A stretch of 63,675 bases of DNA, counting the filler, from Reticulomyxa filosa (taxonomy: Eukaryota; Protista; Foraminifera): NCBI GenBank assembly GCA_000512085.1. It is 20 parts of 20 records of this genome, joined end to end, with 100 filler letters (N's around TTAATTAATTAA, not from the genome) between each part and the next. Parts side by side here need not be neighbours in the genome. Positions count along the whole stretch, not along the records: positions 8,538 to 11,610 come from ASPP01048822.1; positions 11,711 to 12,909 come from ASPP01041777.1; positions 13,010 to 15,243 come from ASPP01003985.1; positions 15,344 to 16,597 come from ASPP01033580.1; positions 16,698 to 24,272 come from ASPP01016607.1; positions 24,373 to 25,520 come from ASPP01006311.1; positions 25,621 to 27,749 come from ASPP01005312.1; positions 27,850 to 30,767 come from ASPP01018339.1; 12 more parts are not named here. One strand, 5' to 3'. Position 1 is the first letter of the stretch; every line of letters starts with the position of its first letter. The position numbers were made by a program, and so were the translations under genes. Below, in pieces: positions 9,424-51,753 of the stretch. The notes under the pieces were generated by a model that searched no databases, was not told the origin of the DNA, and saw only the letters and a program-made list of their open reading frames with translations.

Positions 9424-11610
9424 ATGGTGTTGGGAAAAAAAAATTATAGCTTCCACATAAAAATTGGTTTTTTTTTTTTTAAATAGGTTCTGCAAAGCAA
9501 CTCATAGCAACCGGTTCACAACTAGACACCGATGATGACAACTGGTGGGTAGACTGGTACAACCGATTATCATTCCACAGTTTGACGACTCTTCTTCCAA
9601 CAACTTGCGATTCACAAAGTTAATGAACGGTGTTCGTTTCATGTCCTCAAAAAATTTCAAGGGGTAGCCAAAAAACGTACAATGAAAAAAAAAGAGGATA
9701 ATTTTTTTTTTTTGCCACCAAAATGTTACATGTGTATAAATATAATTTTTTACTAAAAAAAAAAAAAAAATAAAATTTACTAGATACGGACCAAGACCTA
9801 GGATTCAGTTGGGCATTTGTGACGGGGATACGCGACAAATGCCATAATCAACATGATCGAACTGATGAAATTGCTGAATCAGAAAAAGAGATTTGCAGAC
9901 TGGAATCACTGCTGGGAACGAGTGCTGTCGCACAAGGAGCAACAGAAATTTGTGGAAATGTATTTGAACGCTTACAAGGATCGTGTACAAAAAGACAACC
10001 CAGAATTTATGATTAGTGTCGAAAGCAAGTCGCAATACTTGAGAATTCTGTTTGACGTGTTGGGCCGAAATTGGAGCAACAGCAAGGTGATGGCAGACTT
10101 GATTGATCAAATGTTGAACGATTTTGTAATCATGGACGTGGAAAATCTTAACGACAATATTATCAGTCGTTTGAAATCGGAAGAAAAGCACGAGAGTGTT
10201 GCTATGGCCTTCCGCTATATACTGAAATTCATCGACGAGACTGGCACATGGTCGCAGTCGTTGGCAAATTTGTAACGAGAGCCTTTGACTTATTGAAGCA
10301 CTCGCGCACGCAAAAGAAACACGACCTGTTCTATTTCATCGCAAGCGTTGCTTATCATGTTCTTACGTAACGTTTTGCGCGATGACCAATGACGCAACGA
10401 AGAAGACAGGCCAAGGGCTGTATACATCGTCGTTTATCGCTCAATTTATCGACAAGAGCTTGATATATTGAAACCCAGCTATCCAAAGAACAATGACAGA
10501 CGAATGTGGACCGTTGAATGGGAGATCTTTAAGTCTTTTTGCTGTTCGTCGCAAAGGCAGATGAACAGCTCATTCAAAAGTTCCGTCGCGAGGTGGCCAA
10601 CGAGAGAAGACAGCAGCGTTTCGAAGAGAAGAAAGCACGCAAGTTGGCTTTGATTACGGCCAAAGACAAACACGAAAAGAAAAGCGACGACAACAAACAG
10701 GACGAAAGCAAGAAGAAAACAACAGAGGAAAAGAAGCAAATAGACGAAGAGGAAGAGAAAAAGAAACAGAGAAAACCTATGATTGAGTGGTCAAAGTTGC
10801 CATCGTTCACATGGGGGTCCGTGTTTACCAAGTATTTGGGAAGTGGTGTTGTCCTGCTTGAAACAAGTAACCGTGGAAGCGTGCAATTGTGGAGCATAAG
10901 ACGGGAAGCGCAACCGATACAATATTGTTGTTCCGTGAAGAAGCAGTCCGTCGCGAAAACGCTCGCAAGCAAAATGAAAAATCGGCAGTACACCCTTGCT
11001 ATTCAGGACGGACGCTGAATGAGAATGTTGGGCGACAGAACAAGGCATTTGATGCGCGGATATGTTGGAGCAATGGATTTAGGGAGGACACACTGGGTCG
11101 AGGCCAAAGTAAGCAAAACCAGCACACATTGCTCAAGTTCAATTTGGACAAGGGACCTTCCAATGAAATACCGGAAGACAAGTTGGGTTCCAAAATTGAA
11201 GGACTGCTCTTGACGGGAACTCAAATCGTATACAACACAACACCACCTATCGAGAGTCGTTGCGATATCGTTGGTACGAAGTCCCAATTGTCAAACAAGG
11301 CATTCAATATATCTTGCAAGCCTTGAAGAATGTGAATGTGGTGGACAATGAAGGTTTGCGCATAATCGAAAATGACCATTGCGCCATGTTATTGTTGGAG
11401 AAGTTGGTAAGGAAATACCACAGCAAGTATTCGAATTGCACTCGACAACGCTATCCTCGTGCGTTGTTGTGGAAAGAAATTGACACTTTGAAAGAATACC
11501 ACGATGTAATGCTGCATAGCAGACAAGCGCCGCGAGTGCTATGGCGATGGTACCACTACGAACTTATGCATGGAGACGAAAACAAAAGCGCAATTACGAA
11601 GCGAGATGAA
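9424..11610 (+). CDS. Large unknown protein (3' partial) encoded as a chain of overlapping ORFs linked by successive -1 frame breaks
   Basis: GC-richer coding-like DNA. Frames (position mod 3) step 1>0>2>1>0>2>1 from 9853 to 11610, giving a continuous stop-free path that includes a K/E-rich coiled coil. Confidence 0.7.
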
Positions 11611-12269
11611 NNNNNNNNNNNNNNNNNNNNNNNNNNNNNNNNNNNNNNNNNNNNTTAATTAATTAANNNNNNNNNNNNNNNNNNNNNNNNNNNNNNNNNN
11701 NNNNNNNNNNAATGAATATGATTTGATGCGAAAAAAATTAGGTGAGCTGGAGAGACATTGATCTTATTATTTTAAAAAAAGTCAAAAGAAATAACAATTG
11801 AGACAAAAACAATATTTGATGCAAGTATCAAAACTTGCAATTGGGTATGCCACAAACTTGGCATTATTTGACTTCACCGCAACCACCACTTTCAAATGTT
11901 CGATTGACATGTATTGATTCTTTGAAACCTATGTTATATACATGTGTATCCATCATACATGTTTTAAATTTTTTTCAATCATATCATAAAAAAAATATTA
12001 TAACTTGAACATAGGTTGCGCAGCTTACCACCTTCAATCAATCATGAGCACATTACAGTGATTTGGATTTTTGTTTTTCAGATTATACGATATTCAAAGC
12101 ATAATATCGTGATCCATAATCGATGCACTCAATTGCTATTGCCATTACCATTTTTTCTGGGGATTCACTTCAGCACCAATAGTAATATTAACAGCAACAA
12201 CTTGCACACTTCCATTTGCAAACCTTTAAAGATCTATTCAAAAAGTTCAAGCAACACACAACACACATA

Positions 12270-12909
12270 TATAAATAAATAATAAATATACGTTATAAAG
12301 ATGTTTTATACCAAATATGTACACATAATAAAAAACTTTTTCAAGCAATGGACACAAGAACGAATTATAGTGTCAGATCACGGAAAGAGACAGGCGCACA
12401 AATTACCAACAAAATACCATGGACTCTTGTATTGGAATGCTCGCGTTGGTTTCAATGATATGCTTCCCATCAAGTATTCCATTATTTGGAACAATTGAAC
12501 TTGCTTGGGGGAAGCTAGCATCACTGAAAGGCTCTTCCCTAGAGTTACCATTTCTTTGAGTGGTTTTGTCAATGGTAGACCTTTCCACTTTTCGAATTGG
12601 GATGATTCGATTTTTGATAACCGAACAATTCGCTCGTACCCACAGCGACGGCGTCTTTGAGGTGAGAGAGGTGAGATGAGAGAAGATAGAGGGGGCTCCA
12701 CTGCTGACATAAAATATTGTTAAATATCCAATCAGCAGGGCCCAGCGCTACTAATACATTGCAAATATCCAAGCCTTTATTTCATTCGGCAAATAATGGA
12801 GCGATTTTTGAGTCGTCTATCCGTTTATTAATTGGCACGGCCTTGCTTCTTTTTTAATAAATGCACAACAACATTAGCTCTCTTCCGCACACACCAACAG
12901 CAGCGGCAC
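12270..12909. repeat. Dispersed repeat or decayed multicopy gene, copy B
   Basis: Reverse-orientation homolog of 7740-8380. Confidence 0.75.
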
Positions 12910-13009
12910 NNNNNNNNNNNNNNNNNNNNNNNNNNNNNNNNNNNNNNNNNNNNTTAATTAATTAANNNNNNNNNNNNNNNNNNNNNNNNNNNNNNNNNNN
13001 NNNNNNNNN

Positions 13010-13182
13010 GGATTACCTTCGATCGGATACTGTTCCCAATATACATTCGACGCCCAAGGATTGATGTCCGTTGCACGGCCCTCAATATTATCTGTCTGAG
13101 TCGGTACTCGTTCTCGTGGGGCCGTTGCTCGTATATTGCTTTGGCTAACTCGACGAGCGACTTTGGAACCTTGACCTCCCAT
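13010..13182 (-). CDS. N-terminus of a probably N-myristoylated protein (3' partial)
   Basis: MGGQGSK fits the MGxxxS consensus. The frame is open to the contig edge. Confidence 0.6.
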
Positions 13183-13467
13183 TTATTATTTCTATTTATG
13201 TATTAACTCAATTTTTTTTTTTTAGCATTTCCTTCCTGGACACTTTCGCTCTTTTAATATTTTCATTAAACAATGATGATTTTTCAATTCCTACCGCAAA
13301 CGTCATGTTTTCATTTCTTCCCTGGGAACAATAATTTTCACATATTTCTTTCGTCAAGCGAAAGACAATACTGTCCGAAATTTCAGAGAAAATCAACAGA
13401 ATAAAAACATTGTCTAGAAAGGGGAATAAAAAAAGTGGTCTGATATATCTATTATCTTAAATGACAG

Positions 13468-15029
13468 GGGTGGTGGCTTGCCATTTCCTTTGGCAATACC
13501 AACATGCGTGTCTATGCTTGTAGCAGGGAAACAGTCATAAGTATTCCCTGTGAAAATGACGACAACACAATACAAAGTTGTGTATGGTTGTGCCAAAGTG
13601 GAGAGTTATTCATTGGAAACCATGCAACAGATGAATTGATTAGAATTACCACTGAAAAGATTGAAGACATAATATTTTTTATCGGAAAAAAGTTCCTAAT
13701 TATTTGTTTGCCATTTTATTTTTTTTAAAAAAAGTCCGACTCCAAACTTTTTTTTAAAAAGACGATGTGACGAGCTAGAAGTGAAGTCTGAAAGAAAACA
13801 ATGAAGATTTGACGTAGTGAAAGACTGGGAAAATAGGCCAGTAATTGAGATAATGAAGAAAGATAAAAAGCAAAGATACTTTGCGGAGGAGATAATATAC
13901 TGGTGGTTAAAGAAAATGAAGATGAGTGCCGAAAGGCAATCAATCACAAATGTAATGATTGGAATCCCTGATGACTTTAATGATACACAAACTAGAGCTG
14001 TCGTGGATGCAGCAAGAGTAGCTGGGTTCAAAGAAGGATTGCAGCTCCGGCGCAATAGTGTAGCTAGTGGATACCTCTACAAATTAGGAGAGGGATATAC
14101 GTGTATAATAAAATGGGGTGGCACTATGTTGTATGTTGCATTATTGCAAATATCAGGCCACAGTCGAGAGTTACGTGAGTCGTTCAGACAGCAGCTTGGA
14201 GGGAGAGATTTAGACGTTCTGTTGGCACGCTATTTAGTGAAAGAGTTTGTAGAGAGTCATAATCAACAAAATCTCCCTTCGCAACGTATGGTTGCCAGAG
14301 ACAGACTCCTTTTTTTTTAGTCGACATTTAAAACATCAATTAACATTTCAGAGCCAGGCATCTGTTCATATCCCTTTGTTCACAGGTGGCGTAGACTTGA
14401 CATTGGCCATGACTCAGAAAATTTTAGAAAAAGTGGAGCCAATACTTCTTCAAATTTCTCTTGAGTTTGTGAAAAGCTCAGTCCAAAGATGTCAAGTTTC
14501 TAATGTCATTTTATCTGGAGGAAGCTGTTTTATTCCAAAAGTGAAAGATATTATTGCCGGCATTTTCCCTGGCAAAAAAATACACAACTCTGTTCTCCCT
14601 TCTCAATGCATTGTACGTGGCTGCACGAAAATGATCAAAGAGTGAGGTTTTTTGAATTCATGTAACGATATCTTATTAATTGATTTATCACATTTGTCCA
14701 ACCTTGGGATCGAAGGTAAAGATGGGACGATGTACGCCTTCCTTTCAAAGTATTCTTGTATCCCTCAGCATCGAAGTGGCATTTGTGAATTTTTAACTGA
14801 CTATAATTGCAATCTTGCAATTGCCATTTACCATGGAGATAAGCCAAAGGCCAAAGATAATGTTTTTTTAGGAGAAATGCGTCTGTTGAATGTGTCCAAA
14901 ACCCCGTTTCAATTAGTCAAAATCGGACTCTTATTTAAGTTAGATGATAATGGACAGTTCACTGTTACAGCTACGGACACAGACAATCCAAGTAATGTAG
15001 ACATTGCATCTTTCGAATTAAATAAATAG
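13468..15029 (+). pseudogene. Divergent Hsp70-family gene with two in-frame TGA codons and one +1 break (pseudogene or recoded)
   Basis: LAISFGNTN, VMIGIPDDFNDTQTRAVVDAARVAG, LGGRDLD, VILSGGSCFIPKV, LGIE, IYHGDKPKAKDNVFLG and FKLDDNGQFTVTATD are Hsp70 NBD and SBD-beta motifs. TGA at 13802 and 14643; extra T at about 14310-14318. Confidence 0.8.
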
Positions 15030-15417: not shown

Positions 15418-15959
15418 CCCTTTTTTGTGATTTCCTTTCGCAATCGAGGTTTCAAATTCATCTTTGTTTGCAGATACCATTAGTAAAGCGACATCAGTTT
15501 GTATAACTCCAGTGATCATGTTCTTAATAAAATCTCTGCATTATTTTTTTAAAAAAAATAAAAATATTTATACATTCAAATAATTTTAACAATTCACCTG
15601 TGATAAGGGGGATCAATAATTGTGTAATTCCATGTTGGAGTAAGGAATTCTCGTGTTGTGAAAACAATTGTCACACCACGTGCTCTGTCTTCCTTTAATC
15701 CGTTCAAATAAAATTCAAACAAAGTTGAATCTTGTCCAGACTCTTGAGCTTCTTTCTTCAATTTTTCCAATTTTCTGTCAGTCAAACCTGCTAATTCGAA
15801 TAATAAACGACCAGTAATTGTGAGTTTGCCTGCACCGGCTTGTCCTGTGAAAAAAAAAAAATCATAACATTTTTTTATTTGTTAAAAAAAAAGAAAAGAA
15901 AAGAAACCGATTATGACAATTCTCAAATGTTTTTTTTCTTGTTTTGGATCAGCTGACAT
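15418..15959 (-). CDS. EFL: Elongation factor-like (EFL) GTPase, divergent paralogue, 3' partial, 3 exons seen
   Basis: EKKHLRIVIIG / RARGVTIVFTTREFLTPTWNYTIID / RDFIKNMITG / FETSIAKGNHKK. The TT(K/R)EF.T..W.YTIID and IAKGNHK segments are EFL-type rather than canonical EF-1alpha. Confidence 0.8.
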
Positions 15960-16444
15960 TATTGTCGACTAAACAGTGGAATGTAAATTATAAAAAAAGG
16001 TAGAACAAATCGTAAAGATTTTTTAAAAAATCCGTCCAAACTTGTCGAGTTTTTGCACAACGTCACCAAGGTCAATATAAAAAAGGTTGCTTATGAAAAA
16101 TATATACTGTGTATACAAATTTTAATGTCCTATTATGAAAATATACTGAGAAATATGACACAAACACGTCGTTGATGTCAGATCAACCCCATTCTCCAGT
16201 TTCGAGAAACGAGACAGAAGTGAAAGACGACAATGCTGATCTCGTGGGAGATAATAGCACCAATGCGAGTGTGGTGATCCATCACAACGCTCTTTCTATG
16301 AAATCCCAAAGACAGATCAATTAATTATCGGTTTACAAAAAGAAAATATGAAGTTGCAATATCTTTAAAAAAATTTATGAAGAAAAAATACATGATTTGA
16401 CTCAAGTTAATTTTTTTTTTTGTGTTCATATGCATATACACATA

Positions 16445-16597: not shown

Positions 16598-16788
16598 NNN
16601 NNNNNNNNNNNNNNNNNNNNNNNNNNNNNNNNNNNNNNNNNTTAATTAATTAANNNNNNNNNNNNNNNNNNNNNNNNNNNNNNNNNNNNNNNNNNNNAAA
16701 AAAAAAAAACAACGCAACGGAATTATCCGGAATTTGTAAGCTGATGACGTTGATGTCTACGTGCATACAAAAATGTGTATTTGAATAG

Positions 16789-17773
16789 ATTCGATCGGCT
16801 AGTGCAATGTGGGGTGCATGAAGCGCTACTTCATTCTGGAGCTGATGTAATAACGGGGGCGGACATTGCCGCAATTGAAAAAAAAGAAGACCTTTTGTTG
16901 TTGAAATGCCAAGACAAGAGGGAGTTCAAAGGTTATGACTGCGTCATTTACGCAGTTGGCAGAGGTCCGTTGTCGACGGAACTGGGATTGGAACATACCT
17001 CTGTAAAACAAGATAAACGAGGCTTTATTATTACAAATGAATGGGAGGAAACACATCAAAAGGGAATTTATGCCTTGGGGGATGTCAACAATAAAGTCCC
17101 GCTTACACCAGTTGCCATTCGCGCTGGGAGAAAGTGGGCTGATCGCGTGTTTGGAAGCATCAAAGATGCAAAAATGGAGTACGATCTTGTTCCGTCCGTC
17201 ATTTTCAGCCATCCGCCTATTGGGACTATTGGTCTTACTGAAGAGCATGTGCGTGAACAAGTGAAAAATAAGAAATTGCCCGAACCTATCAAGGTATTTA
17301 ATTGCTTGTTTGTTCTTTTTTTTTTTTTCATTTATTTATTTAATTGACAGTTATTAAACTGCTCGCTCAATTTTGTCATTTATATAAGACCCCCTTTGCG
17401 CATTAATACTATCAATGAAAAGGGGAGGGGGCGGCGGGGTAAAAAAAAAAAGATTTATGAAACCCATTTTCGAGACTTAAAGTATGGAATGTATTCAAAT
17501 CAAAGTGAAAAAGTCATGACTCATATGAAACTAGTTTGTGTAGGAAAAGAAGAAAAGATAGTGGGTTTGCACATGATTGGTGACGGTTGTGATGAAAGCC
17601 TTCAAGGATTTGCCGTTGCAATCAAAATGGGTGCTACTAAAGAAGATTTTGACAACATCACAGCAATTCATCCAACAGCAGCTGAAGAATTAGTCACAAT
17701 CAAAGTTGCTCGTGGGGATGAAGACAATTACTCTTACAATTGTGGACCAGATCAGAAAGTAGACTTAAAATGA
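16789..17773 (+). CDS. GSR: Glutathione reductase (5' partial; intron 17294-17452)
   Basis: [77 protein letters not shown]. Confidence 0.95.
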
Positions 17774-17898
17774 AGTCGTTGATTTCTTTTTTTGAATTGT
17801 CTTGAATAAAATAATAATGTTCAATCTTTTGATCAAAAAAAGTTTTTTCCTCTCGATAAAAAATAAAGCAAAAAACAAAAAAGGCAATTTTTTATTAT

Positions 17899-19061
17899 TT
17901 AGTCAACCTCAACCTTTTTTTTCCAAATTTTATTCTTAAAAAATTCTAAGGCTGTTTCAATGGGAGCAACGGAAGAACGTCTATCCCATATAACTTCTCC
18001 TGGGTGCCCTTGGTTGAAAGTTGCAATTTTCCAAATAAATTCGCAATTAATATATCCACGCTCATCACCAGAACACAAAATAACGTTGTTAGTTGAAATT
18101 TGCATTTTCAGACCATTCTTAATGCATGCAATCGGTCCACATAAAGAAGCAGCTGACAGTTTTTTCTTAACCCTGATTTTACATTACCGATTTGGAATTG
18201 ATCTCCACATGCAAAATGGACATGTGATCGTTTCATGCGACTTAATCCACCACTCTTGATAATCAATTCAAATGTATTGAAATACGTTCCATGGCAAATG
18301 ATGTCACTCCATTGTTTTTCAATGATTTCTTCAATAGTTAAATCTCGCAGCAAACAATCAAAATCCAGTTCTACTGTCCCTTTACTTTTCAGGGAATGTC
18401 CTTGATTTGCCCGAATCCACAAGTCCTTCTTCATTTTTTCCGTCGTGGTACTAGATTCCACACATTTCAACGAATATCTTTGCTTATCATCGTTTGCCAC
18501 CATCTAAAGACAAAGATTTCATTATAACAACAATCAAAAATCAATTTTCATTTTTCCAATCATATCGTAAAGCGCTTATTATATATGTATACGTAATACA
18601 TGTATATAACACAAAAGTGCAAGAAAGGAAAAAAAAAGAAGAGAACTAACATTTTGGATATCTTCCAAAGTGACCTGCCCTTTTTGCATAGCTGGAATAG
18701 TAAGTAATTCAGACACTCTTACATACCCTTCCTTGTCCATGTGAAGTTTTAACTTGTCTGCAGTGTGTCTAAGAATGCGGGACGTGGTTTTGCTCAATTG
18801 TATACCTTGCAACTTGCGTTGTTTCTGGCCTGCATTTTTGTTCGATTTTGGTTGTTTAGGAGTTTTAGAATAATCTTGCTTCTTTTGACTAGATTGTTTT
18901 TTCTTTGTTTGATTTTCCTTGTGCTCATCATGACTGAGAAGTTCCAAATACGACAATGGTAAGGTATTGTTATTATTCTCATTTTTATTATTGCCGCCAA
19001 TCGCCTGAATTTGTCGTTCGCAAATTAATTGCTTTTCTTTCGAATCACGATTCCAAATTTT
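17899..19061 (-). CDS. TPT1: Tpt1/KptA RNA 2'-phosphotransferase domain (C-terminal half of a NUDIX-Tpt1 fusion); intron 18504-18651; -1 break at about 18121-18135
   Basis: LSKTTSRILRH, DDKQRYSL, IRANQGHS, CHGT, GLSRMKRSHVHF, SGLR, STNNVILCSG. There is no in-frame ATG upstream of the LSK..RH motif. Confidence 0.9.
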
Positions 19062-19915
19062 TCATACGCTTGACAGAGCGCATCTTTTGTATTTTCGTAT
19101 CGAGCCGGAATATATTTTTGACATTCCTTAAATGCCAGCCATTGGACAGCCGCAATTTCCTTAGGACGTATAATTGAAGGGATGCACTTTTCATTGCAAT
19201 GTGCCAAAAATATTGTCGTCCGTTTTAACTTCAGAGTTTTGTAGGTTTTATATTTGTACTCGATTATCAATGGGTCGTGCCAATCACAGGTTATCACATC
19301 TTTGAAATAATTGCATCCAGTCTCTTCTTCAAATTCACGAATTGCCGTACTAAACCCATTCGGATTTTCTGTTCTTTCCAATCTACCCTTTTTTTTTTTT
19401 TTTTTTAAATAAAAAAAAAGTAAATTTGAAAGAAGCAAAAAATTAATTAATTAATTAATTAAAAAAAACGTACTTTTGGAAATCCCCACTCCGAGTTATA
19501 CTTGTTTTTAATTAATAGAAATTCCAAATCATATTGCTGAGTGATCTCATTTACATTGTATTTACTCGCTTGTGTCAAGCCTTGGACTCGATAGCATAGA
19601 AGTCCAAAAGAGTATACGTACTCTTTATACTCTATTCCTTCGCTTATTGTTTTAAATCAGTCATTTGTTCTTTTCTTGGCTGTCCCATTGCTTTAGGGCT
19701 TACTCCTTCCCATTGCTTTAACAATTGCTCTAATGCAGTGACCGAACTATTGCGCTCAGCTCCCTCACCGCTGCTTGGATCGTCGCGATTTTTTGTTTCA
19801 CGTTTTGTACTGTTTGTTGTTTGTCCGTCAATACAAATGTTTAATAACGCATTGATCGCATTTATTTGCAATACCTCAAACCATCTTCTTTAGTTTCAAC
19901 GAGATTTGCCGACAT
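19025..19915 (-). CDS. NUDIX hydrolase domain (Ap4A-hydrolase-like) with N-terminal extension; intron 19388-19473; -1 breaks at about 19647-19656 and probably about 19865-19889
   Basis: YSFGLLCYR...EFLLIK..WGFPK|GRLERTENPNGFSTAIREFEEETG (Nudix box). Confidence 0.88.
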
Positions 19916-20330: not shown

Positions 20331-21897
20331 GAAATGTGTTCAAATTTTTTTTCCTTCAATCTGTTATTTTTGGCAGTGTCGTGGCTACTAATAATTGGCC
20401 CCTTGGTGGTCTCATTAGATCTGCTTGCGATTCACTTCACAAACTGGTATTTTGACAATAATTTAGAATACTTGCAGCATACATTAATGATTTGCGTGTA
20501 CGGGTTGAATGCATATTTCATTTTGAAACATATAGTGCTGGACAAAAAGGATGCTGCCCCGAAATTGACAAAATCAAAATTAGGCCGAATATTATCTCTA
20601 GGTATGCTATCAACGGTTGCATCGCTTTTGAACCTGTTAATAACAGCGACAACATGGATAGCTCCAAACAAATGGCTTAAAGGGGGATTCCTTTGCGATT
20701 TGGTGTATTGCGAGTATATGTCATATAATTTGTATTATTTGGAGATATTTGGTCTGATTATGCCCTGTTTCATAGCATTGTTTCTCTATCAAGTCACGGA
20801 CAAATGGAGGAAGAATCGATCTGATGTTATTTTCGATGGGAATATCAATAGCACGAAAATAACGACGACACCCAATGAATTGTCAGTCTCATTGCTATCG
20901 TCCGATGTTAATGAAACGGATCAATTTGATAACCTGAACAATAACAATACACCCGTAATGTCCATTTTTTGGTATAATGTGTATGCATATTTGTGGATTT
21001 TCTTGTACGGCTTGGCCTTGTTTGTATCCTATTGCTATTCTCAAATTCAGTCTTCCTATACCAATGACCACTTTGATTTGGTGTATCTGTCACTATTATT
21101 TGCCATGTTTACATTAAAATTGGCCATCAAAAGAGTCTCACGAGGCTTGGATATGTGTCGAGCACATTGGCAACACAAACATTACACTAACTCATCAGAT
21201 CCGGAACAAACATCCATTGAATTAATGACTGAGTTTATCATGTCCTATATTTATTGGGACGTATACCGATATTTGTTCATTTGCGAAAAGATCAAATGGG
21301 AAAGTTTCATTATTTCCAAAATAATGCACGTTCTTTCAGAATTATTCGAAACTGGGTATGTTTCCCCTTTTGCAATGTGTACGTATTATTTGTTTACTTT
21401 TTTTTGCAAAAAACATGCACAAAATAAAAAGATTTCGTCCAGGTAATTGGTATTTTAAAACAACAACAGTATTGCTTAACACAAGGCTGTCAAATGCCTA
21501 TTTGATACCTTATGGAATCATACAAGATGTTTACACATCAAACAATGAATGGAAGCAGCGCTTCTCAGCAGATATCATGTTGCATTTCATGGCATCGTTT
21601 TTTGATGGATTTGGCTGGATTGTTACCTTGAACGTGCAAAGACAATATTTTAACACCAGTTTAGGAATTGACGTGTCTGACTCTTTTGTCTTTTTAGTTG
21701 TGAGTATGTCCATTGATGCGATCCTTTTACTTATTCATTATATCTGGTTTTTATTCGCTTATGGCATTAATGTTACCGAGCTGGCTTCTGTTTTGTTTAT
21801 ATCCCCAAAGCAAAATAAATTTCGTTGGGATTTCATTTTGACTTTGATTTTCCTGTATTGTTCATCTGCTCTACAATGGTTGTTTTTGGGAACGTAA
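20331..21897 (+). CDS. Unknown polytopic membrane protein (intron about 21356-21431; start uncertain)
   Basis: Long hydrophobic ORFs join in frame as ETG|FRPGNW. No frame breaks. Confidence 0.75.
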
Positions 21898-22209: not shown

Positions 22210-23221
22210 TTATTTTTGGTAGTCAGTTTTTCCCTTGTTATCATTTTTTGCTAAAGTATCAGATATCGTCTCATCATTCTTTTTTGTTCCGGTTACAACT
22301 TTTGATGAGATTTCTTTTCCACTGTTCTTTATGGAAGCCTATGCATTAACCCCTTTTTCTTTGGGAAAAGGGGGTACACAATAAAATAAAGGTTTCGCAG
22401 ATCAGTACTAAACTTGAATAAATCCTAAAAAGGGTGGCGAATTTCGTGTAGGACCTGACTTGAATTCAGGATGAAACTGGCATGCAAAATAAAAGGGGTG
22501 TTTGTCTTTTGGTAACTCGACAATTTCCATTCGTTCCCCTGATTCGTCTTTGCCAGTGAACAGTAACCCTTGACTTTCCAATTCTTTTACAAACTTTGGG
22601 TTTACTTCATACCTGTGACGATGTCGCTCAGAAATTTTGGTCTATGATCAAATTCCAAGCATCGGATACAAAAAAAAAAAAAAAAAAAGAAATTCTTGTC
22701 ATATTGTATTGTCTGTTATGAATTGGTACAAAACTGATTGATAGCAATCATAGGCAATCGAGTCCGATTGTAAATGGCATGTTTTGGCTCCCAGTCTCAT
22801 GGTACCGCCCAAATGTGAGGAAGAGATATCCGGCATACAGATTACGACCTTGTTTTGCGTCGTTGGGTCAAACTCCGCACTGTTGGCATTCTTTAGATTA
22901 CATATGTGTCGAGCGTATTCAATAACTGCGCACTGCATGCCAAGACAAATGCCAAAAAACGGTTTTTTATGAGTACGAGCATATTCGATCGCAAGGATCT
23001 TTCCCTCGATGCCCCGATCGCCAAACCCTCCTGGTATCAATATTCCGTCCACACTTTCCAAGCTTTTCCAAGCCCTCGCGTATTTTTGCAAAGGTCCATT
23101 GTCATTTTCCTCTTTGTTTTCCTCGCTTTCTTCTTTTGTCTCTGTTTCCGTCTTAGTCTCGGTCTCAGCCTTGGTGGTCGCTTATGTGTATTGTGATATA
23201 TATTTTGAATCAATAGCCCTC

Positions 23222-23257
<36 letters not shown>

Positions 23258-24090
23258 TTAGTATATTAACAAGACGCCTCTGTCCCTCCTCTTTCCAATT
23301 ACCAATGCAACATAGAGATGGAGAGAACATTTTTTACTTGAGGATATCTCTTTGGTCTTTTCAGGATGTTCGTTGGTGAGTTCCTTCGATGGGTCTGTGA
23401 TCAGGTCGCCATCGGTCGGCACAATTGGTAAAGACTCCAAATCCGTGCTTTCGATCCACATAAGAGTCAATTTCAAATCACAGGCCAATGCTGCAGTGGT
23501 CAATGCTTTTGTCAAGCTGATATAGCTATCGGACAAGCCTAGCACACAACCATCAATTTGTCATAATCATTATAATTTCTTTTTTTTTTTTAAAAAAAAA
23601 AAGGGGGTCGATAAAAAGAGAGAGAGAGAGAGAGACCAGTGTATTTGCCAACAATTCCAATGACAACTTCTTCGTGACAATGCTGAAGTTTAAAGTCTAA
23701 TAAATCAAAGTCTTGTACTTGCAGCGGAGGAGTGGCATCATGAATATGCAGGGACTGCAAGATCAACGAACAAATGTTTTGTTGCAGCAGCAGACGTGGG
23801 ACGGCGTAAATGTTCGGGACGTCATGGACACTGAGCACACGGTCAGGCGGCACCATGCTAAACAGTGAGATTTTTTTACGAATGCTCGCGCTGATGGGCT
23901 GCGTGCTTCGACAAACAATCATATCGGGGATCAGTCCCGCCTCTCGCAATGCCTTCACACTGTGTTGTGTCGGCTTCGACTTCATCTCGCCGTCCGCTCC
24001 CAACGCCGGGATTAGTGAAACATGAATCAAACAAAAGTGTTGAGAGCCCACGTCAAACTTCAATTGTCGCAATGTTTCTAAAAATATCAT
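22210..24090 (-). CDS. CTPS: CTP synthase (5' partial, six exons seen)
   Basis: [69 protein letters not shown]. All exons join by GT-AG in frame. Confidence 0.97.
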
Positions 24091-24226
24091 GCTTTCAATA
24101 TCACCTTTATATATGTATATTACATATCTATATATTTATATATATAAATATTTGCACAATATTTACATACAGAGACGACACAAAGTATACATAAAAGTGT
24201 ATATATTTTTTTCCCTCTTGGCAGCC

Positions 24227-24260
<34 letters not shown>

Positions 24261-27749: not shown

Positions 27750-27908
27750 NNNNNNNNNNNNNNNNNNNNNNNNNNNNNNNNNNNNNNNNNNNNTTAATTA
27801 ATTAANNNNNNNNNNNNNNNNNNNNNNNNNNNNNNNNNNNNNNNNNNNNTTGTAAAAGTGTAAAATACACTCACACAAATATACATAACAAAAGAAAAAA
27901 AACAAAAC

Positions 27909-28443
27909 TCGGGAGCATCGATGCATGACCTCGACGTGCGACAAGTCGGAATACGAAAAAATCACTTGATCTACGTTCTTGTCGACAATCAAGTGTTCCA
28001 GATCCTCTTCTGGAACTATCGGAATACCTTTTGGATATTGTGATCCACTCAACTCTGATGGGTATTTTCTTCCTTCAATTCCTATTCGTTACAACAAAAA
28101 ATGTATGTTTAAAAGTGCAAAACACAAAAAAATTTTTTTTTAAAAAAAAAAGTTTGATATTGTTGTCCATAGTTGCTTCTTTTTTTTTTTTTTTTGCAGA
28201 AGATCCTCAAAGACCTGGAATTTGGGTAGCAGTGAAAGCCACGACGTTGAATCTTGGATTATCACGGAAATACATATTGAAGTTGTGAAAGTCTCGTCCT
28301 GCTGCACCCATTATGGCTACATTTTCGACGGGTGCTTTTGGAGGAACTGACGAAAAGGGTTTTACAAATCCTCTCGAAACTCCCCTGTGAAATCTCAAGT
28401 TTCGATTCAAATATCCTGTCTTTGATAAAAGTCTTCGATACAT
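27909..28443 (-). CDS. COG2403-type predicted GTPase / cyclic 2,3-diphosphoglycerate-synthetase-related protein with a mitochondrial-type presequence (3' partial)
   Basis: IMGAAGRDFHNFN..FRDN..VVAFTATQIPG|IEGRKYP..YPKGIPI..FSYSDLSH..VMH. N-terminus is Arg/Ser-rich and acid-free. Confidence 0.8.
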
Positions 28444-31214: not shown

Positions 31215-32506
31215 TTACTGTAGTAAATAAACTTCTATTTCTTGCACCGTAAATGGACCTGATATTAACGCATCAAGTGGACCATCATATGAACATAATT
31301 TGCTAAAACTCTCAGTATTTTTGTTAGAATTTTCGCTAATGTAAAGATCACCTTTACCTATTAAAAACAAAACAATATAAAACTTTGAAACTTTGTATAT
31401 TTTTTTTTCACTTACCAAAGCATGGTCCACAATTTCCAAGAATAGCATTTTCTTCTTGCCCTTTTTTAATGTGAAATTTTTGAGGCACTATACTATTATC
31501 ATTTCTTAATAAAAATAAAAATGCATCTTTGTCATATGTATTTGTATTGCCCCCTCGACGATTCCACCAACTTACAGTTGTGTATCCACCAAAAACACGG
31601 TCTTTGGCTTTCACAATAACAACTGTTTTCCCTTTTCGATTGCAATTAAAATGAAATGCATTTGTATTAAATCCATCTCGACTTGCACAATACAATAATG
31701 ATCGTATTGTTTTGTTTTTAGGTAAAAGCGACAACAACACTTTTACTTCTCCATTTTTGATTATTCGAGATTCCATCAGTTGTTGGGATACATACAACAA
31801 AAATTCTGGAGAATACTGTGTAACTGTACATTTTGTTTTGCAAAAGCCATGAATTCTAAGTTTGTAAGTGTTTTCCCACGCGATTTCTTCATGGCAAAGC
31901 ACGAGAGATCCTTCGCTTGTACTTGGTACTATCTCAAATTCTTTTATTTTTTCCCATTCATAGTTAATATTATCGTTGCCACATTTTAAAATTTCCAATT
32001 GATATTTGGAAATATTTTGTTTATTTTTTATGTTCCATTGAATCAATACCATTGGAGTAGCCGAAGGAGTTAATTTGGCTGTAAGATCAATTTATTCATT
32101 TGAGATAATCTTCAAATGATTATTGAGCATGCAATTTAATGCATTACTTATATCTTGTATTCCTTTTTCTAGCGGATATGTATGTTTTTTGTTACTTTCA
32201 ATTTGTTGATTACAAGACAATTCTGTTTCTTGTACATGCACTGTTATGCCAAGTATTACTTTTTGACAGTGCTCCCGGATTTGTTCTATTAGTAATTCGC
32301 GACATTCTTCAATTTTTTTAATTCTAGTTTTTCGGTATTTTTATTTTCCAGTTTCTCCATTTTTATTGAATAGTCGTGAATAATATTTTGTAAATTATTC
32401 TCTTCTTTCTCATCTGAAATAGTGTATGTACTTGTTTGGTGATTTTGTACTTTTGCATCTTTTCTTACCGGATTGCATTTTGGTAACTTTTTTTTCAAAT
32501 TATCCT
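31215..32506 (-). CDS. Coiled-coil / FN3-like / TLDc domain protein (5' partial), one -1 break at about 32311-32320
   Basis: LLYCASRDGF..AFHFNCN.KGKTVVIVK..VFGGYT..AFLFLL..GPCFG..FTVQEIEVY. Confidence 0.88.
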
Positions 32507-32616
32507 NNNNNNNNNNNNNNNNNNNNNNNNNNNNNNNNNNNNNNNNNNNNTTAATTAATTAANNNNNNNNNNNNNNNNNNNNNNNNNNNNNNNNNNNNNN
32601 NNNNNNAAAAAAAAAG

Positions 32617-33046
32617 GAAAGATTGGTGATGTGTCTGATGCTCGGATGATAAGCTTCCAAATGAATTATTTGAGCTTCAAATTGGCGACGCTGTATAGTA
32701 TTACGTTTGTAACGACGATAATCGCGTACGTTATAATAATTAGTAATGACACTTACATTGCGTTGATCGCGTCGACGGATATTTTGATAAACACAATCTG
32801 CTTGCTATTTTCTTTCAAGTTTATGGACAAACACTATCGCAAGTGCTCTGCACTTTGTGGCTGTATGCATATCGGACGCCAAGAGTTTTCACAAATTCTG
32901 AAACTTGTCGACGCCAATAGCGATTTGCGTATGATCATATTGGTCGCAGTGGCCAATTTATGGACAAAATTGCTATTCCTGATACCGATGACGATGACAA
33001 TAATCAAAATATTGAGCTCAGCCAACATGATCAAGGCGATGTTTGA
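32617..33046 (+). CDS. C-terminal exon of a divergent 7-TM protein with a probable -1 break at about 32921-32930
   Basis: TM6/TM7-like STDILINTICLLFSFKF..YRKC. The -1 frame gives a natural acidic tail IPDTDDDDNNQNIEL ending TGA TAA. Confidence 0.65.
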
Positions 33047-33974
33047 TAATCTTTTTTTTTTCTATGTTTGTCTCTTGTCATTATCACTATTATATTACAT
33101 TTTTTAAAATTTGAAATATTTAGTGAATTCAAAAAGAATAACATAGAAAAGAAAGTTACATCATTCAAAATTATATTACATCAACTACAACGCAATACAA
33201 AAGTAAATATCCAACAGCTTTTATCTATATGGCAAGGCCCACTACTTTAATGTTGTTCGGTTTCTTTTTTGTGTCATTTGCGTTTGCTTTTGTTGAAAAA
33301 ATTGCTTAAGAAATCAATATCATATTCATTTTGAGCAAGCCTTATGGTAGTAGTCAGTACAAAAAGTATATCATTGCTTAAAATAGCTAAAGTAATAAAT
33401 TATATATTTACTAATTAATAATTATTCAACTTTTGCAATTTACCGAATATCAAGAATTTGACCAGCTTGCTTCTGACGCTGTTCAGAAGCCAATTACTTC
33501 ATTAACTGACTCGTGCCTATGTACATTATTTTATGTATAGTTTTTTGAAAAAATTTAATAAATAAGTGATAACAATTTTAACAATAAATACAAAAACCAT
33601 TTATTTTATGTAATAGCTTTGTATTGATTACTTTATATTATGTAGATACCGTTTCGCTATTTCGTCAGTATTGGCATTTGTTATTGTTGTAAACTAATTA
33701 TGTGTTTGTTCATCTTGCGATGTTGCTTGAATTTGATGCTTTGCACAGTCACTTTTGTGTTATTGTTTTCAACTGATTAGTTTGCTAGTTGACAATGTAG
33801 GGAAAGTCCCTATTATAAATCCCCAACTACTAACGGAACGGTGGGACCCCCAGTGGGTTAAAACCCTCTTCTCANNNNNNNNNNNNNNNNNNNNNNNNNN
33901 NNNNNNNNNNNNNNNNNNTTAATTAATTAANNNNNNNNNNNNNNNNNNNNNNNNNNNNNNNNNNNNNNNNNNNN

Positions 33975-46513: not shown

Positions 46514-46615
46514 NNNNNNNNNNNNNNNNNNNNNNNNNNNNNNNNNNNNNNNNNNNNTTAATTAATTAANNNNNNNNNNNNNNNNNNNNNNNNNNNNNNN
46601 NNNNNNNNNNNNNGG

Positions 46616-46653
<38 letters not shown>

Positions 46654-46705
46654 GGCATGTAGGGGACATGGACAAGAAAGATATTACGCAAATCCAAACA
46701 AAGTA

Positions 46706-47617
46706 CGTATATCCATCTTTGCATTGGCTGTGTTAACTGAAGAAAACGGTGACGTAGACAAAGGGTTCGGTGACAAGAGCGACTCATTTACTCCGAAAGA
46801 CCTTTTCCCACCAAGATAGCCATCTTGGTGTTGCATTTTAGGTGCTTGCTATTCGATAACGACAGATTAAAATGTTAAAAAAAAACTTCTTTTTTTTATA
46901 TGCATATCATAATCATAATGAGCATATTCAAATTATGGGTGCAAAAAAAAAAAAGTACGTGAAGGCATCTCAAAGTTTGTCCATGGATCAGAGATGGGTC
47001 ATTTATTTAAAAAAAAAAAAAAAAAAAACTTTTCTTTGCAACTCAACTTGCGACGGTAGGTCAGTGGCTTGCTGCACGTGGCCATATCTTGTGTAGCTGA
47101 CATCAGTCGGATGAATCCCATTTGTATACGACAAACCACGACTTGGTGTCGCAATATATGCTGGTGTGGCTTTATGTGCTGGCACTGTTGAGATTGGAAG
47201 TGATACTGGGCCGTTGGCTCTTTGCGAGTCACTGGTCATATTGCCGCCTTGTTGCCCGTGATGCTGAACGCTATGGTCGTGGGCTCGCATCGAAAAATTG
47301 TATGCGCTTTCGTCCGAACGCATCGGTGCACTGCCCATCCTCGCCAACTTTGGATTCACTTGCATTGTATTCGAATGCGCAGAGCTAAATGATACACCAT
47401 TATTGCTGGCCCCAAAATGAGGGTGAACTCCATTACTATTTATTGAAGTACTACGTCTTGCGACTGGATGCGACGGCTCATCGTAAGATACGTGTCCGCT
47501 AGGGACGCTTTGAGACTTGCTACTATCTTCGCTGCTTAAACTCGTTGTATGCACAAGAGTGCTCAACGATGAAAGTCCAGTTGCTAGTCCTTTTTGTGGT
47601 ATTGAATAGCTAGACAT
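46706..47617 (-). CDS. Ser/His-rich low-complexity N-terminus of an unknown protein (3' partial, spliced)
   Basis: An open first exon of about 195 codons is followed by GT-AG introns. Confidence 0.65.
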
Positions 47618-48416
47618 CACCCGAAATAACTATTTAGTTTTAGTTTCCCCTAATATGTTGAAGTTCTTCGCCGCAGGCGAACCAGTTAGTGGAAGAAAAA
47701 AAAATCCAATACAGTACACTGTCGTCATATTGAGCATAAAAATTAACCAGTATATATATTAATTAATATGGTGATGTAATATATTGTCTGAAAATATGTT
47801 GCTAAACTAAACAACTCAAAGCAAGAAGAAAAGACCGAACCGTAATTTTTTTAATTATGATGCAAAAAATTGCCTGTTCTATAAACGATACTATTTTGAC
47901 TTTTGGGAACGAATAAACATACTGTTTCCAAACTTTTTTCCTGTGCCGTGCTGGCGCGCTCTGTGAGGCTACCTTCCGGTCAGAACTTGTACATGCTCTC
48001 ATTATTAGCCATTTTGAGTTGGGTGAGTTTGTCAACTGGGACAATTTATTTCAAAGAAACGTTTGACATCAATTCTTTTGCAAATAATCTTGGGTTGCTT
48101 CTAAATGGTCAGTTTTTTTAGTACTACCATAAAAGATTGTTTTATGGCATGCAAATATAAAAAAGTTATCATAAAACTAATTTCATATTTAAAAACTGCA
48201 AGATTTATATATATTTTGAAACGAAAAATTACATTTAAACGTTTATTTTCCATGGAAAAATTCGATTTTCTTAATAGTGATGCCATTATGTATTACAGTT
48301 TTTTACAATATACTGTATTTACTACTTTACAAAAAGATCAAACTGAATCTGCATAAATCTTTTAGCTGCGGTCCTCCACCACAATTCAAAAAAAAAAGGG
48401 CACCAGCCCATGTATA

Positions 48417-49283
48417 ATGACCGACCCAAATGTTACCCAAAAAGCAAAAACATTAGCCTGTTTTGTGGAAATTTTATTGTTGATATGTGAATTAACAGTC
48501 GGGAACCATTTATGTACACATTTGAGTGCGTATCTAACACCAAAGCCAAGGAACGGTGAACCGATGATTATAGCGAAATGTGCCATGTATTCCATATTTC
48601 AAGTGCTGTTGATATTTATACTAACGTATTCAATGGCATGGAATTTTTGCACAAGACCAAGTGTGATTTTCAACAAAATGGGGCTGAGTCGATCAACTTG
48701 CAAAGTGAGCTGGAAGATGATAGCAATCGTGACCAGTTGTCACATCGTGAGCACGTATTTATTGGATTATTTACAAAACCATTATTTTTTATCAGCAATG
48801 AAAGTGGTTCAATTGGATGCCAAAAGACTAAGCGATCCGTACGCGGTAATTCGCATCATAGTGTTTGCACCTTTGATCGAAGAGATAGTATGCCGTGGCT
48901 TTATATTTTTGATACTAATAAAATATGTGTCTAATTCGAATCGGTTTAGATTAATTGTGATATCCTCGTTTATTTTTGCTTTGATTCATTTATCAAACCT
49001 GTTTCAAAGTGCAAATACAGTAAGCGATGAATATTTGGTTTTGCAAATTGTCTACGGGTTCATTGTTAGCATTTTTTATGGCACTCGAATGATGTGCAAT
49101 GACTTATGTATTGTTGAATGCATTATTTTGCATGTCTTTAATAACCTTATTTCTCTCTTTGCTATGCCTCCATTTCGATCTGTTGACGTGTGGCAAAATC
49201 CTATTGCCGTTTTTGGGGCTATTCAATCCATCTTTGTTTACTCTCTGTTGAGTGTCTATTCATGGAGGCTGTCTAAGCACTAA
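48417..49283 (+). CDS. CPBP (Rce1/Abi, CAAX protease II) intramembrane protease, intronless
   Basis: PLIEEIVCRG (EExxxR), SSFIFALIH (FxxxH), ILHVFNN (HxxxN). Confidence 0.92.
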   Translation: MTDPNVTQKAKTLACFVEILLLICELTVGNHLCTHLSAYLTPKPRNGEPMIIAKCAMYSIFQVLLIFILTYSMAWNFCTRPSVIFNKMGLSRSTCKVSWKMIAIVTSCHIVSTYLLDYLQNHYFLSAMKVVQLDAKRLSDPYAVIRIIVFAPLIEEIVCRGFIFLILIKYVSNSNRFRLIVISSFIFALIHLSNLFQSANTVSDEYLVLQIVYGFIVSIFYGTRMMCNDLCIVECIILHVFNNLISLFAMPPFRSVDVWQNPIAVFGAIQSIFVYSLLSVYSWRLSKH

Positions 49284-50562
49284 ATTTTTTTTTTGAAGCC
49301 TTTGTTGCTTCGCTCAATCTTTAAATTTGATTTTTTTTAAATGCAACTACTACACCAATCACGCCAAATATCTCTGTAGTTTTCAAAGAGTAAAGTGCTA
49401 CAATTCCTTATTTTGGTCAAAATCGAATTTAAAAATCTAATAGTTTTCTTTAAAATGTATGAATATTTTTTTTAAAACAAACGTTATTTATACTCGTAAA
49501 AAAGTTGTTTTATTTGTTCATTTTTTGGTCTGATATTCGAAACACGCGGGTCGGAAAGAATGGACCAAATAGAACATGGACGTACTTTTTAGAAGAGTGA
49601 TCGTATATGTCCACATAATTTTCCTGTTGTTTTGTTGTAATATTTACATCCATTTGATTTAATAAAAGCAGACAGTCACAAGTATAGCTTCTCTAAAACA
49701 AAAAAAAAAGTTGAATAGCCGAGTAAACAAGTTGATGTACACAACTTAAAAAAGGTTGCCCTGCTGGAATTTATGAACTTTTCTACCAGGAGTTAAACAA
49801 GGTTTTTGGCTTAAGGGATAAAAGAGTAAACTAACATAATCATGTTTTTGAAATAATTACCTAGTTTCGACCTGTTGCCCTACATTCTGGTGCTTGAAAA
49901 TTAGAAAAAAACGAGTCACCTGTAAGCACTGAAAAGTTGATATTTTTAAAAGGTAAAGAACGAAGACTTTTATTTTCCTTGGTTTGCGTACAAAATGAAG
50001 GTCTTTTTCTAACACAAAAATTGGCGATAATGGCGGTCACTATTTTATGAGGAGCACGATTCTTTTCCGTGATACACGATTAGTCAATATTGTCTTTGAA
50101 TTTAAATCAAAACAAGCAAACTTTGATGTTAAGGAAATGTGTAATAATAGCCCCTATTTATGGATTTTCTTTTTTACTTTTTGTTACTGTTTGCTTTTAA
50201 AAAGCTTTGAGCACACAACAAAAAAGATTAAATATCGATCTTTGCAAATTGTGCTATGTTTTTTAATATAAAAGATTCAATATGCACAATTTTTTTTTAA
50301 AAAAATTTTTTGCAAAGAGGAATGATCGTTGAAGCAAATTTTCATTCAATTTGGGGCAGTATTTTGACAATGGGTTTAACCTCATCCGACACACACATTT
50401 CTTCACATAAAAAAAGGGATTTACATACAGCGCTGTTCCTGCAAAAAAATTTTTGCTTTTCGAATTAAAAAAGTTCGCTTATGCTTTTGTTGAGCTTCAC
50501 CTCAAAGAAAGAGCCTACGTCTTGAACTTACAGCTCGACTAACTTTAGACATCGGAAAGAGA

Positions 50563-51753
50563 ATGTACCTAAACGTGGAAAAGTCAGGATTTAAATCTGA
50601 ATGGTCCTTCTTTGTCATGCTGGTGGTGGAGTTGCTATGCAGCTTGTACTGTGGATGGTTATTATATTGGTCATGGGGTTGTATGTGGGCATGGATACCC
50701 CCAAGAACACAAAGTGTGGAGCTGGGCCAAGAAATGCAAAATGTCTCTGCGACAGAAATGAGAGAAATTAGTATTAGTCTATCAAAGACGTTCGAGAGAA
50801 GGCCAGCAGTGTCTTTGGATAGAAAAATAAAATTAATAGTCACTTTGTATATTTTCAGTTGCATTTTGACTTGCGTTGGGACCATAATCGAGAGCCTTGT
50901 GTATTCATGGCCAAGCGTTTTTGCACACGCTTGTGACCAAACATTATACGTATCTTATTTGAGAGTGTTAACCGATAGTTTATTTTTTTGTTTTATGTTA
51001 TTCGAGTTATCGTTATGCTTCGAGGGAGCGCACTTGAGCTATCCAAATACCGTCAATTCACTTGTATAGTTATTCCAATCACCACCTTTACGACCATTTA
51101 TGTTCGGTTTCTAACATACAATAAAATCAGAGATTGCAAGCAACTTGATCTAGAAGGAGAGTTGCTGCTCTTAGTTGCTGTCATTTGCCAATTCTTTTGG
51201 AATGTTATTTTATTTCTTTTCTTGGTATACTATTTGCGCAAAGTTTTGTACTTTTTTTTACACACATAGTTAAGCAAAACAAAAAAAAGCGGTTGTTAGT
51301 ATTTTTTTGAAGTAGTAACCAGCAACCTTTTTTGTCGATTCTTTTTCTTTTTTATTTTTTTGCTTTGCTTGACTGACAATTCTTGGAAAGAAGAAAAGCG
51401 AGAGCTATTCTCAAAAAAGAGTACACACAACGTCTTTTAAGGAGCGAAGTAAATCGCTACGTTTGAGATGAGGCCCATTTGTGCCACAAAAAAAAAAGGT
51501 TGCGAACAATGACCTCCTTTCTACTCCGTCATGTCGTAAGGATTTGAGCGAATTTTTGAAAAAATTGCTACGATTATTTCTGGTGTCTGAGCTAACTGAT
51601 TTTATTGCATATGCATGCATGCTGATGCCCGCGTTGACCAATTTTGCTTGGCCCGTGGTCTCAATTGATCTTTGTATCAATTGCACAACCATGTTGCTAT
51701 CGCTTTCTTTTGCACAAGCAATGTTTGATCGTGTTTGTCTATGTCACAAGTAG
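50563..51753 (+). CDS. Divergent 7-TM protein; introns about 51243-51390 and 51421-51498; one -1 break at about 51040-51066
   Basis: Hydrophobic helices continue across ORFs 50563-51069 and 50988-51269 (frame 1>0). TM7 VSIDLCINCTTMLLSL..FDRVC parallels the other 7-TM genes. Confidence 0.72.

Follow-up and report, generated by a model that had tools for sequence, protein, structure and literature searches.

One-base frame breaks in genes of a Reticulomyxa filosa draft assembly and their possible origins

Do spliced genes of the foraminiferan Reticulomyxa filosa lack single bases, and if so, is the loss a matter of the assembly, of gene decay or of the way in which the messages are read? The question comes from a window of 63,675 nucleotides, made of 20 R. 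filosa draft-assembly contigs joined end to end, in which the original prediction saw five genes broken only by missing bases and proposed nuclear insertion editing, transcriptional stutter or −1 frameshifting. The present analysis reveals that frame breaks do exist in the deposited sequence and lean to one missing base. The observed sequence does not require editing to explain them.

Frame breaks in the deposited sequence

Breaks were called with a direction-neutral codon DP in which −1, +1 and stop events carried equal costs (penalty −6). In the five predicted genes it gave 12 −1 events, 2 +1 events and 2 stops, and a sixth gene (54709-53449) contributed 2 additional −1 events. The same procedure returned no call in 31 hand-picked stop-free exons of 13,131 nt (leave-one-out; exons chosen as clean), and it recovered a single −1 in 225 of 240 simulated deletions and a single +1 in 226 of 240 simulated insertions. 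Fourteen of the 16 frame changes are thus of the −1 class (P=0.002 at 50:50). About 9 to 10 of the −1 breaks are path-independent, and homology pins only two, both in the NUDIX-Tpt1 gene. The genes concerned, apart from NUDIX-Tpt1, are the following.

9424..11610, plus strand: gene of no known family, truncated at the end of its contig, with −1 breaks around 10268, 10890 and 11255
9540-9960, plus strand: within the 5′ region of the 9424 gene; either two −1 events or a single +1
10290-10614, plus strand: three path-dependent events in the 9424 gene
31215..32506, minus strand: 5′-truncated TLDc-domain gene with a −1 break at 32289-32342, whose break window holds an A7 run
32607..33104, plus strand: end of a membrane-protein gene (32617 gene); optional −1 break at 32919-33041
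50563..51753, plus strand: membrane-protein gene; frame change at 50977-51069
53449..54709, minus strand: gene absent from the original prediction; −1 calls at 54559-54621 (T5) and 54500-54541 (A5), which leave aside the middle part of the gene

Frame changes are therefore present in NUDIX-Tpt1 (four), the 9424 gene (several), the TLDc gene (one) and the 50563 gene (one), but the view that all are −1 and none involves a stop was overstated. Most calls are indeed repaired by adding a base, whereas for the 5′ region of the 9424 gene a parse with one +1 (score 11.3) does as well as one with two −1 events (10.7-11.7); at 10290-10580, three −1 events score 3.8 against 5.5 for the combination of −1, stop and +1. 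The TLDc gene carries an in-frame TAA at 32092-32094, where one stop versus three −1 events gives 4.8 versus 6.7 before any event cost, contrary to the statement that no stop needs to be read through. Nor need all five genes be broken: the 32617 gene has a single open frame to 33104 with zero calls at penalty −6, and the change in the 50563 gene could be a 29-nt GT-AG intron (50978-51006, GC 0.21) instead of a −1 at a T7 run.

No homologue was found for the 9424 gene (148-aa piece, searched against longer proteins only; Pfam; Atlas best score 0.86, low recognition) or, among longer proteins, for the TLDc gene's N-terminal portion. In the 9424 gene, GC3 is 0.52-0.70 versus 0.25-0.64 in clean exons. 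The membrane-protein gene at 984-1961 gave no alignment with the 50563 gene.

The NUDIX-Tpt1 gene and its clean neighbours

The best-defined breaks lie in the NUDIX-Tpt1 gene, which shares its contig with three clean genes.

17899..19915, minus strand: NUDIX-Tpt1 (2′-phosphotransferase) fusion gene, deposited as RFI_19877; four −1 breaks
19388-19473 and 18504-18650, minus strand: introns of NUDIX-Tpt1
19862..19891, minus strand: break 1 (−1), called by the codon model only; longest run 3
19644..19658, minus strand: break 2 (−1), a 15-nt break window with T3 and A4 runs
19025..19063, minus strand: break 3 (−1), in the stretch that separates the NUDIX domain from the Tpt1 domain; approximate site, with an A5 run touching the break window
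18125..18135, minus strand: break 4 (−1), within the Tpt1 domain; pinned by homologues to a doublet-only stretch
16754..17770, plus strand: GSR-like gene (label from the original prediction); clean, same contig
20334..21897, plus strand: membrane-protein gene; clean neighbour
22411..24135, minus strand: CTPS-like gene (label from the original prediction); clean neighbour

Break 4 is the best site, because homologues pin it to 11 bases without a long run; as candidates for the missing base, the four nucleotides differ in score by about 2 bits at most. In alignments with relatives and with Tpt1 chains of solved structure, the Tpt1 stretch keeps the shared motifs. Four relatives (P0002, P0003, P0060 and P0079) read across the same positions in one ORF, and P0003 is itself a NUDIX-Tpt1 fusion in a single ORF. 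At break 2, the spacing to relatives is consistent with a one-base gap, and the upstream motif match is weak by itself (E=0.017). The deposited RFI_19877 model skips over all four breaks.

The metagenome scan with P0001 gave no match, and that with the Tpt1 alignment A3 gave 80 Tpt1 loci (best 40% identity), none of which matched the NUDIX part; thus no related DNA locus for NUDIX-Tpt1, foraminiferan or other, was found in these scans. Exact protein look-ups found one of 5 and two of 10 sequences in the collection, each only from its own contig (cluster size 1; contigs of 7575, 3073 and 1639 nt), so that no independent copy of a break-bearing protein came from these 15 look-ups.

As predicted, the GSR, CTPS and 20334 genes are clean over 3,633 nt. 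On this one contig the count is four breaks in 1,781 nt against none in 3,633 nt (P ~0.012, calculated by hand and post hoc).

Some sites, though not the whole set, could be explained by short introns of length 3n+2 or by a wrong choice of frame, and it is very unlikely that these account for most breaks. There is a 20-nt intron at 9468-9487 and a 29-nt candidate over the 50563 break; at least one GT-AG candidate is present at 11 of 11 breaks tested, and several calls are path-dependent. However, the other ten best candidates have a GC of 0.31-0.44, versus 0.10-0.31 in 11 accepted introns, and candidate introns at breaks 2 and 4 would delete residues kept by the relatives.

Consensus errors or young pseudogenes

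We favor, tentatively, the reading that the one-base gaps are consensus errors of a fragmented draft and that the real genes are ordinary, spliced and single-frame. The gaps sit in deposited contigs, and the host genes keep intact-looking motifs, splice sites and codon bias. Single bases may have been lost where few reads or the joins between pieces underlie the consensus; the gene predictor would then have masked the gaps with invented introns or shortened genes. Part of the predicted list would be no break at all, namely the optional break, the possible short intron and the stop. Damage confined to indels (0-2 stops versus 12-14 −1 calls) is what such errors predict. For the R. filosa assembly, 50,809 scaffolds and an N50 of 3,609 are given (PMC13746701). 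Pyrosequencing errors concentrate at long A/T runs, and frameshift errors of low-GC drafts from the 454 era resemble the present breaks in being indel-only, in leaving genes otherwise intact, in affecting a similar share of genes and in falling at A/T runs at several sites (PMC3277595; PMC3599269).

In contrast to those errors, which prefer long runs, at least four sites here have runs of 3 or fewer, while long runs in neighboring genes are correct. The claim that no long homopolymer lies nearby holds for some sites, since three of the 14 stop-bounded break windows have no run longer than 3 and break 4 falls among doublets; at others an A7 or T7 run is present. Runs of 4 or more occur in 11 of the 14 windows versus 10.0 expected at random and are thus no commoner than chance, in a test powerless to separate uniform from run-weighted deletion. 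Furthermore, clean exons hold long A/T runs in frame (five of 7-8 bases and 16 of 6 bases), breaks cluster by gene, and they lie no nearer to contig ends or to long runs than clean exons do. The assembly reportedly rests on 454 and Illumina data, and the contigs contain runs of 31-35 bases, which suggest Illumina-type data. Such data contain few indels, which also speaks against consensus error. The literature searched reported no one-way undercall bias, and both undercalls and overcalls are named (PMC2905547).

It is also quite possible that the bases are truly missing from the DNA and that these are young dead copies, which gain one-base deletions before they gain stops. True relics are present in the window (Hsp70-like, STI1-like and LINE-like):

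13463..15029, plus strand: Hsp70-like relic, which carries a +1 at a T9 run besides two stops

The 2014 R. filosa genome paper is said to describe gene amplification and many pseudogenes. Between the members of a paralogue pair (7739-8310 versus 12908-12340) there are 90 substitutions and about 19 internal gaps, of which 11 measure 1 nt; indels are thus common in this DNA. Seven gaps occur where one of the copies remains open, and by eye six of them represent losses from its partner. A five-copy dispersed repeat also occurs and is too short to polarise indels. Gene-wise clustering is natural for pseudogenes, and a stop is present in the TLDc gene. Among the indel events of three groups of eukaryotes, 64-68% were deletions (PMC2817411). 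The decay described there resembles the present case in its excess of small deletions, in damage limited to single genes and in relics nearby.

On the other hand, stops and +1-class breaks are fewer here than the central expectation from such decay (PMC2817411), although statistically within reach. With 5 substitutions for each frameshift, 3-4 stops would be expected alongside 14 breaks; 0-2 are seen, and the probability of 2 or fewer is 0.21-0.39. It falls to 0.015-0.043 for zero stops if both stops are explained away, and with a −1 share of 0.6-0.7, the probability that 14 in 16 fall one way is 0.018-0.10. Nor was a second, intact NUDIX-Tpt1 found in R. filosa, in an assembly that is incomplete.

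Editing and recoding as alternatives

Gene-specific nuclear mRNA editing would leave the DNA one base short and add a nucleotide during or after transcription, by analogy with the mitochondria of Physarum or of amoeba BB2. It is unlikely that R. filosa adds single non-templated bases to some of its spliced nuclear mRNAs at intervals of a few hundred bases, with genes such as NUDIX-Tpt1 lacking one base in the DNA at every site, even though editing would predict all that is observed here: breaks of a single direction that need no long run, a scarcity of stops, a concentration of breaks in certain genes, and motifs that stay intact. In BB2, one base is added beside an identical base, without long tracts, and the editing of BB2 and Physarum is like the present case in DNA that is one base short, in the lack of stop read-through and in the dispensability of a long tract (PMC5421314). 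However, BB2 and Physarum editing is organellar, RNA-proven and reaches nearly all genes (39 of 40 in BB2; PMC5421314). Here, the break-bearing genes have GT-AG introns and lie on nuclear-type contigs, they are a minority known from DNA alone, and the 31 exons chosen as clean are free of calls. In miliolid foraminifera, a conserved frameshift in mitochondrial cox1 has been described, for which insertional repair was proposed (PMC10127745; PMC8589990). This, too, is a foraminiferan gene mended on paper with one inserted base, but it is mitochondrial, has one site and is conserved across several species (same sources), whereas for the present sites no conservation was found.

Against editing, too, no break was found conserved in a relative; each relative's protein is encoded by a single ORF, on a contig that may be DNA or RNA. 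No sequence context common to the break sites was found, and the four candidate inserted bases are near-equal at the best site. Literature searches gave no report of insertional editing in foraminiferan nuclei, and we know of no earlier case of such editing in nuclear mRNA.

Mending by pervasive −1 ribosomal frameshifting or by polymerase stutter at slippery runs, both part of the original prediction, is highly improbable. In-frame X XXY YYZ heptamers occur in four of the 14 break windows versus 1.6 expected, but they are absent from the other ten, and that of the break-4 window lies upstream of the homology-pinned site. At usual efficiencies, four to seven serial shifts would leave almost no full-length protein. 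Transcriptional slippage calls for a homopolymer of about 8 or more at each site, and no break-window run exceeds 7. Euplotes likewise has nuclear genes with serial frame changes; its shifts are +1/+2 at stop codons, in contrast to the −1 class found here, without stop context.

The likely readings amount to a warning that protein models of this assembly mask frame breaks with false introns or stop early, the affected models being of 552, 140 and 214 aa. Such false introns and shortened models cause conserved residues to be lost from the reference foraminiferan proteome. If the editing reading were true, insertional editing would reach from organelles to nuclear mRNA, and many R. filosa "pseudogenes" and unusual short introns would in fact belong to live genes with a wrong annotation.

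Frame breaks and their count in the window

The frame breaks proposed by the original prediction are visible in three-frame translations, and the deposited 552-aa model of the NUDIX-Tpt1 gene (RFI_19877) omits all four of its break sites. To the five genes named at the outset, a sixth was added.

9424-11610 (+), 9424 gene
17899-19915 (-), NUDIX-Tpt1 gene, breaks 1 to 4 at 19862-19891, 19644-19658, 19025-19063 and 18125-18135
31215-32506 (-), TLDc gene
32607-33104 (+), 32617 gene
50563-51753 (+), 50563 gene
54709-53449 (-), sixth gene

Because path choice by eye was to be avoided, we used a codon DP with equal cost for a missing base (-1), an extra base (+1) and a stop. A set of 31 exons lacking stops (13,131 nt) served to train its score. 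At a penalty of -6, leave-one-out runs gave no call in these exons, which is a test of the method and not of the genome, as the exons had been selected as clean. Simulated deletions were called as a single -1 in 225 of 240 cases and simulated insertions as a single +1 in 226 of 240. A penalty of -4 produced nine false calls and was discarded.

The DP called 12 -1, two +1 and two stops in the five genes, and two further -1 in the sixth. Thus, "all -1" is too strong a description, and the directions are not balanced within the window either: 14/16 frame calls are -1 (P=0.002 at 50:50), stop-bearing genes having previously been set aside as relics. These calls, together with the method checks, indicate that the -1 excess is real in the window, with genes carrying stops excluded beforehand. 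About 9-10 breaks are independent of the path, and two are fixed by homology.

The observation was therefore partly confirmed. Contrary to the claim that no stop read-through is needed, the TLDc gene carries an in-frame TAA (32092-32094); to bypass this stop, a path would have to place three -1 events in 50 nt, and its score would rise by 1.9 units with event costs left aside. Repair by an added base is not the only solution in the 9424 gene, whose 5' part fits one +1 as well as two -1. Of the three-event paths across 10290-10580, only the one with all events -1 is free of stops, yet it scores 3.8 against 5.5 for -1/stop/+1. If the all -1 path is correct, four loosely positioned breaks at 10268-10545 lie ~90-95 nt apart, approximately a short-read length. 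The 32617 gene needs no break, with 166 codons open in one frame. In the sixth gene, the -1 calls lie at T5 and A5 runs and the middle part is parsed ambiguously; the clean KH and CPBP genes occupy the same contig. Elsewhere, 27850-28443 (-) is a gene with introns, presumably resembling a bacterial-type GTPase.

Homologues of the NUDIX-Tpt1 gene

With P0001 as the query protein, 1,878 matches were obtained among 1.84 billion representatives.

Useful relatives of P0001
P0002: 52%, Tpt1
P0003: 39%, 527 aa, ENA, complete NUDIX-Tpt1 fusion as a single ORF
P0060, P0079 and P0114: NUDIX

The fusion is not an isolated case, since P0003 combines both domains in a single ORF; P0079 is a Bolivina argentea protein. 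At break 4, solved Tpt1 chains follow the first frame up to the YVD motif, directly after which relatives match the other frame with no gap. When all single-base insertions were scored against a five-protein profile, the top 20 distinct readings fell at 18125-18135, where the sequence has no run beyond doublets, and the inserted base is not named. For break 2, stops delimit a window of 15 nt, and the spacing to P0079 is consistent with one missing base, the upstream motif match being weak on its own. A frame change is required between the two domains at break 3, its position not being fixed, and break 1 is based on the codon model.

The NUDIX piece as query returned a single protein match, RFI_19877. 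Exact protein look-up matches (1/5, then 2/10 sequences) each came from one contig of this assembly, and a foraminiferan-like locus was absent among the matches of two metagenome scans. Word searches (of longer proteins only) found no homologue of the 9424 gene piece or the TLDc N-part, and Pfam and Atlas searches found none of the 9424 piece.

Sequence context of the breaks

Of the 14 stop-bounded windows, 11 contain a run of at least 4, where random placement predicts 10.0; simulation was unable to separate uniform from run-weighted deletion. Breaks free of a long homopolymer, as originally described, exist in 3/14 windows, whose runs do not exceed 3. In-frame slippery heptamers were present in 4/14 windows against 1.6 expected, one of them away from the homology-pinned site. 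Compared with clean exons, breaks lie no closer to long runs or to the ends of contigs. Therefore, ribosomal frameshifting and stutter fail to cover the set, and as a cause they are judged, without computation, to be scarcely credible.

Short introns or misparse are, by the same kind of judgement, a very improbable main cause. A candidate GT-AG intron, T-rich and 29 nt long, does extend across the frame change claimed in the 50563 gene, but at the ten other breaks tested the top candidates have a GC of 0.31-0.44, above that of most of 11 accepted introns (0.10-0.31). An apparent 20-nt GT-AG intron, nearly all T and A, lies at 9468-9487.

Error, decay or editing

The 2014 R. filosa genome paper reportedly used 454 and Illumina sequencing, and is said to describe gene amplification and many pseudogenes. 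Consensus error and decay each have a high prior and each leave something unexplained. The window comprises 20 contigs of 1.1-13.6 kb with spacers between them; the assembly has an N50 of 3,609, 50,809 scaffolds and 101.9 Mb, according to the available part of PMC13746701. Very long runs, mostly contig-end, are A33 (1-33), T31 then C12 (24230-24272), A35 (46616-46650) and G15 (60623-60637). A perfect 128-nt inverted repeat (37748-37875/38312-38439) beginning at a contig end may be a small mobile element or an artefact of fold-back. An AT-rich repeat of ~150 nt is dispersed in five copies (5228, 16443, 30618, 39461, 48166), often near contig ends.

Judged by fit against prior and not computed, consensus error has a nearly even chance of being the cause. 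It would give indels without stops. In the accessible portions of the sources, 454 assemblies of low-GC genomes had at least 20% of genes affected (PMC3277595) and a yeast 454 assembly had frame errors in more than 700 ORFs (PMC3599269), a scale comparable to that seen here. However, published 454 errors favor long runs, whereas here 21 A/T runs of 6-8 stay in frame in clean exons and contigs contain runs of 31-35 bases. Furthermore, the NUDIX-Tpt1 gene has four breaks in 1,781 coding bases, against none in 3,633 in the GSR-like, CTPS-like and 20334 genes of the same contig, which are clean as predicted (P ~0.012, by hand, post hoc).

Such clustering by gene fits young pseudogenes, a tentative but quite possible explanation, again by uncomputed judgement. 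The paralogue pair 7342-8311 (+)/12340-12908 (-), which has no Pfam family, is 76% identical with many small indels and gives ~1 indel per 5 substitutions; 14 breaks therefore predict 3-4 stops, with P(2 or fewer) of 0.21-0.39 and P(0) of 0.015-0.043. In three eukaryote groups, deletions account for 64-68% of indel events, as far as the excerpted text of PMC2817411 goes, so that 14/16 has P=0.018-0.10. At the implied 1-2% divergence, a functional gene and one that died recently cannot be distinguished by intact motifs and GC3. Against decay, protein searches with the NUDIX piece and P0001 found no second intact NUDIX-Tpt1 copy, the assembly being incomplete. Separately, an EF-1alpha-like copy at 15420-15960 (-) (Pfam GTP_EFTU), with open frame, introns and GTP-binding motifs altered by eye, reads as probable substitution decay without frameshift.

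Insertional editing of nuclear mRNA fits all features best but has the lowest prior, and in our uncomputed judgement it is unlikely. The nearest system, in the part of PMC5421314 available, is that of amoeba BB2 mitochondria, where one base is added beside an identical base in 39/40 genes, as shown by RNA; in contrast, the R. filosa genes are nuclear, spliced and mostly clean. A cox1 frameshift recorded as a candidate in miliolid foraminifera is conserved (PMC10127745, PMC8589990, in their available parts), whereas the R. filosa sites are known from R. filosa sequence alone. At the level of titles, the searched literature, mostly outside subscription journals, showed no report of insertional editing in foraminiferan nuclei, and the available parts of PMC11980380, PMC13466520, PMC4374526, PMC5784254, PMC5715807, PMC6133090 and PMC2905547 do not describe frame breaks in R. 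filosa. Most likely, the finding does not represent a biological system of R. filosa.
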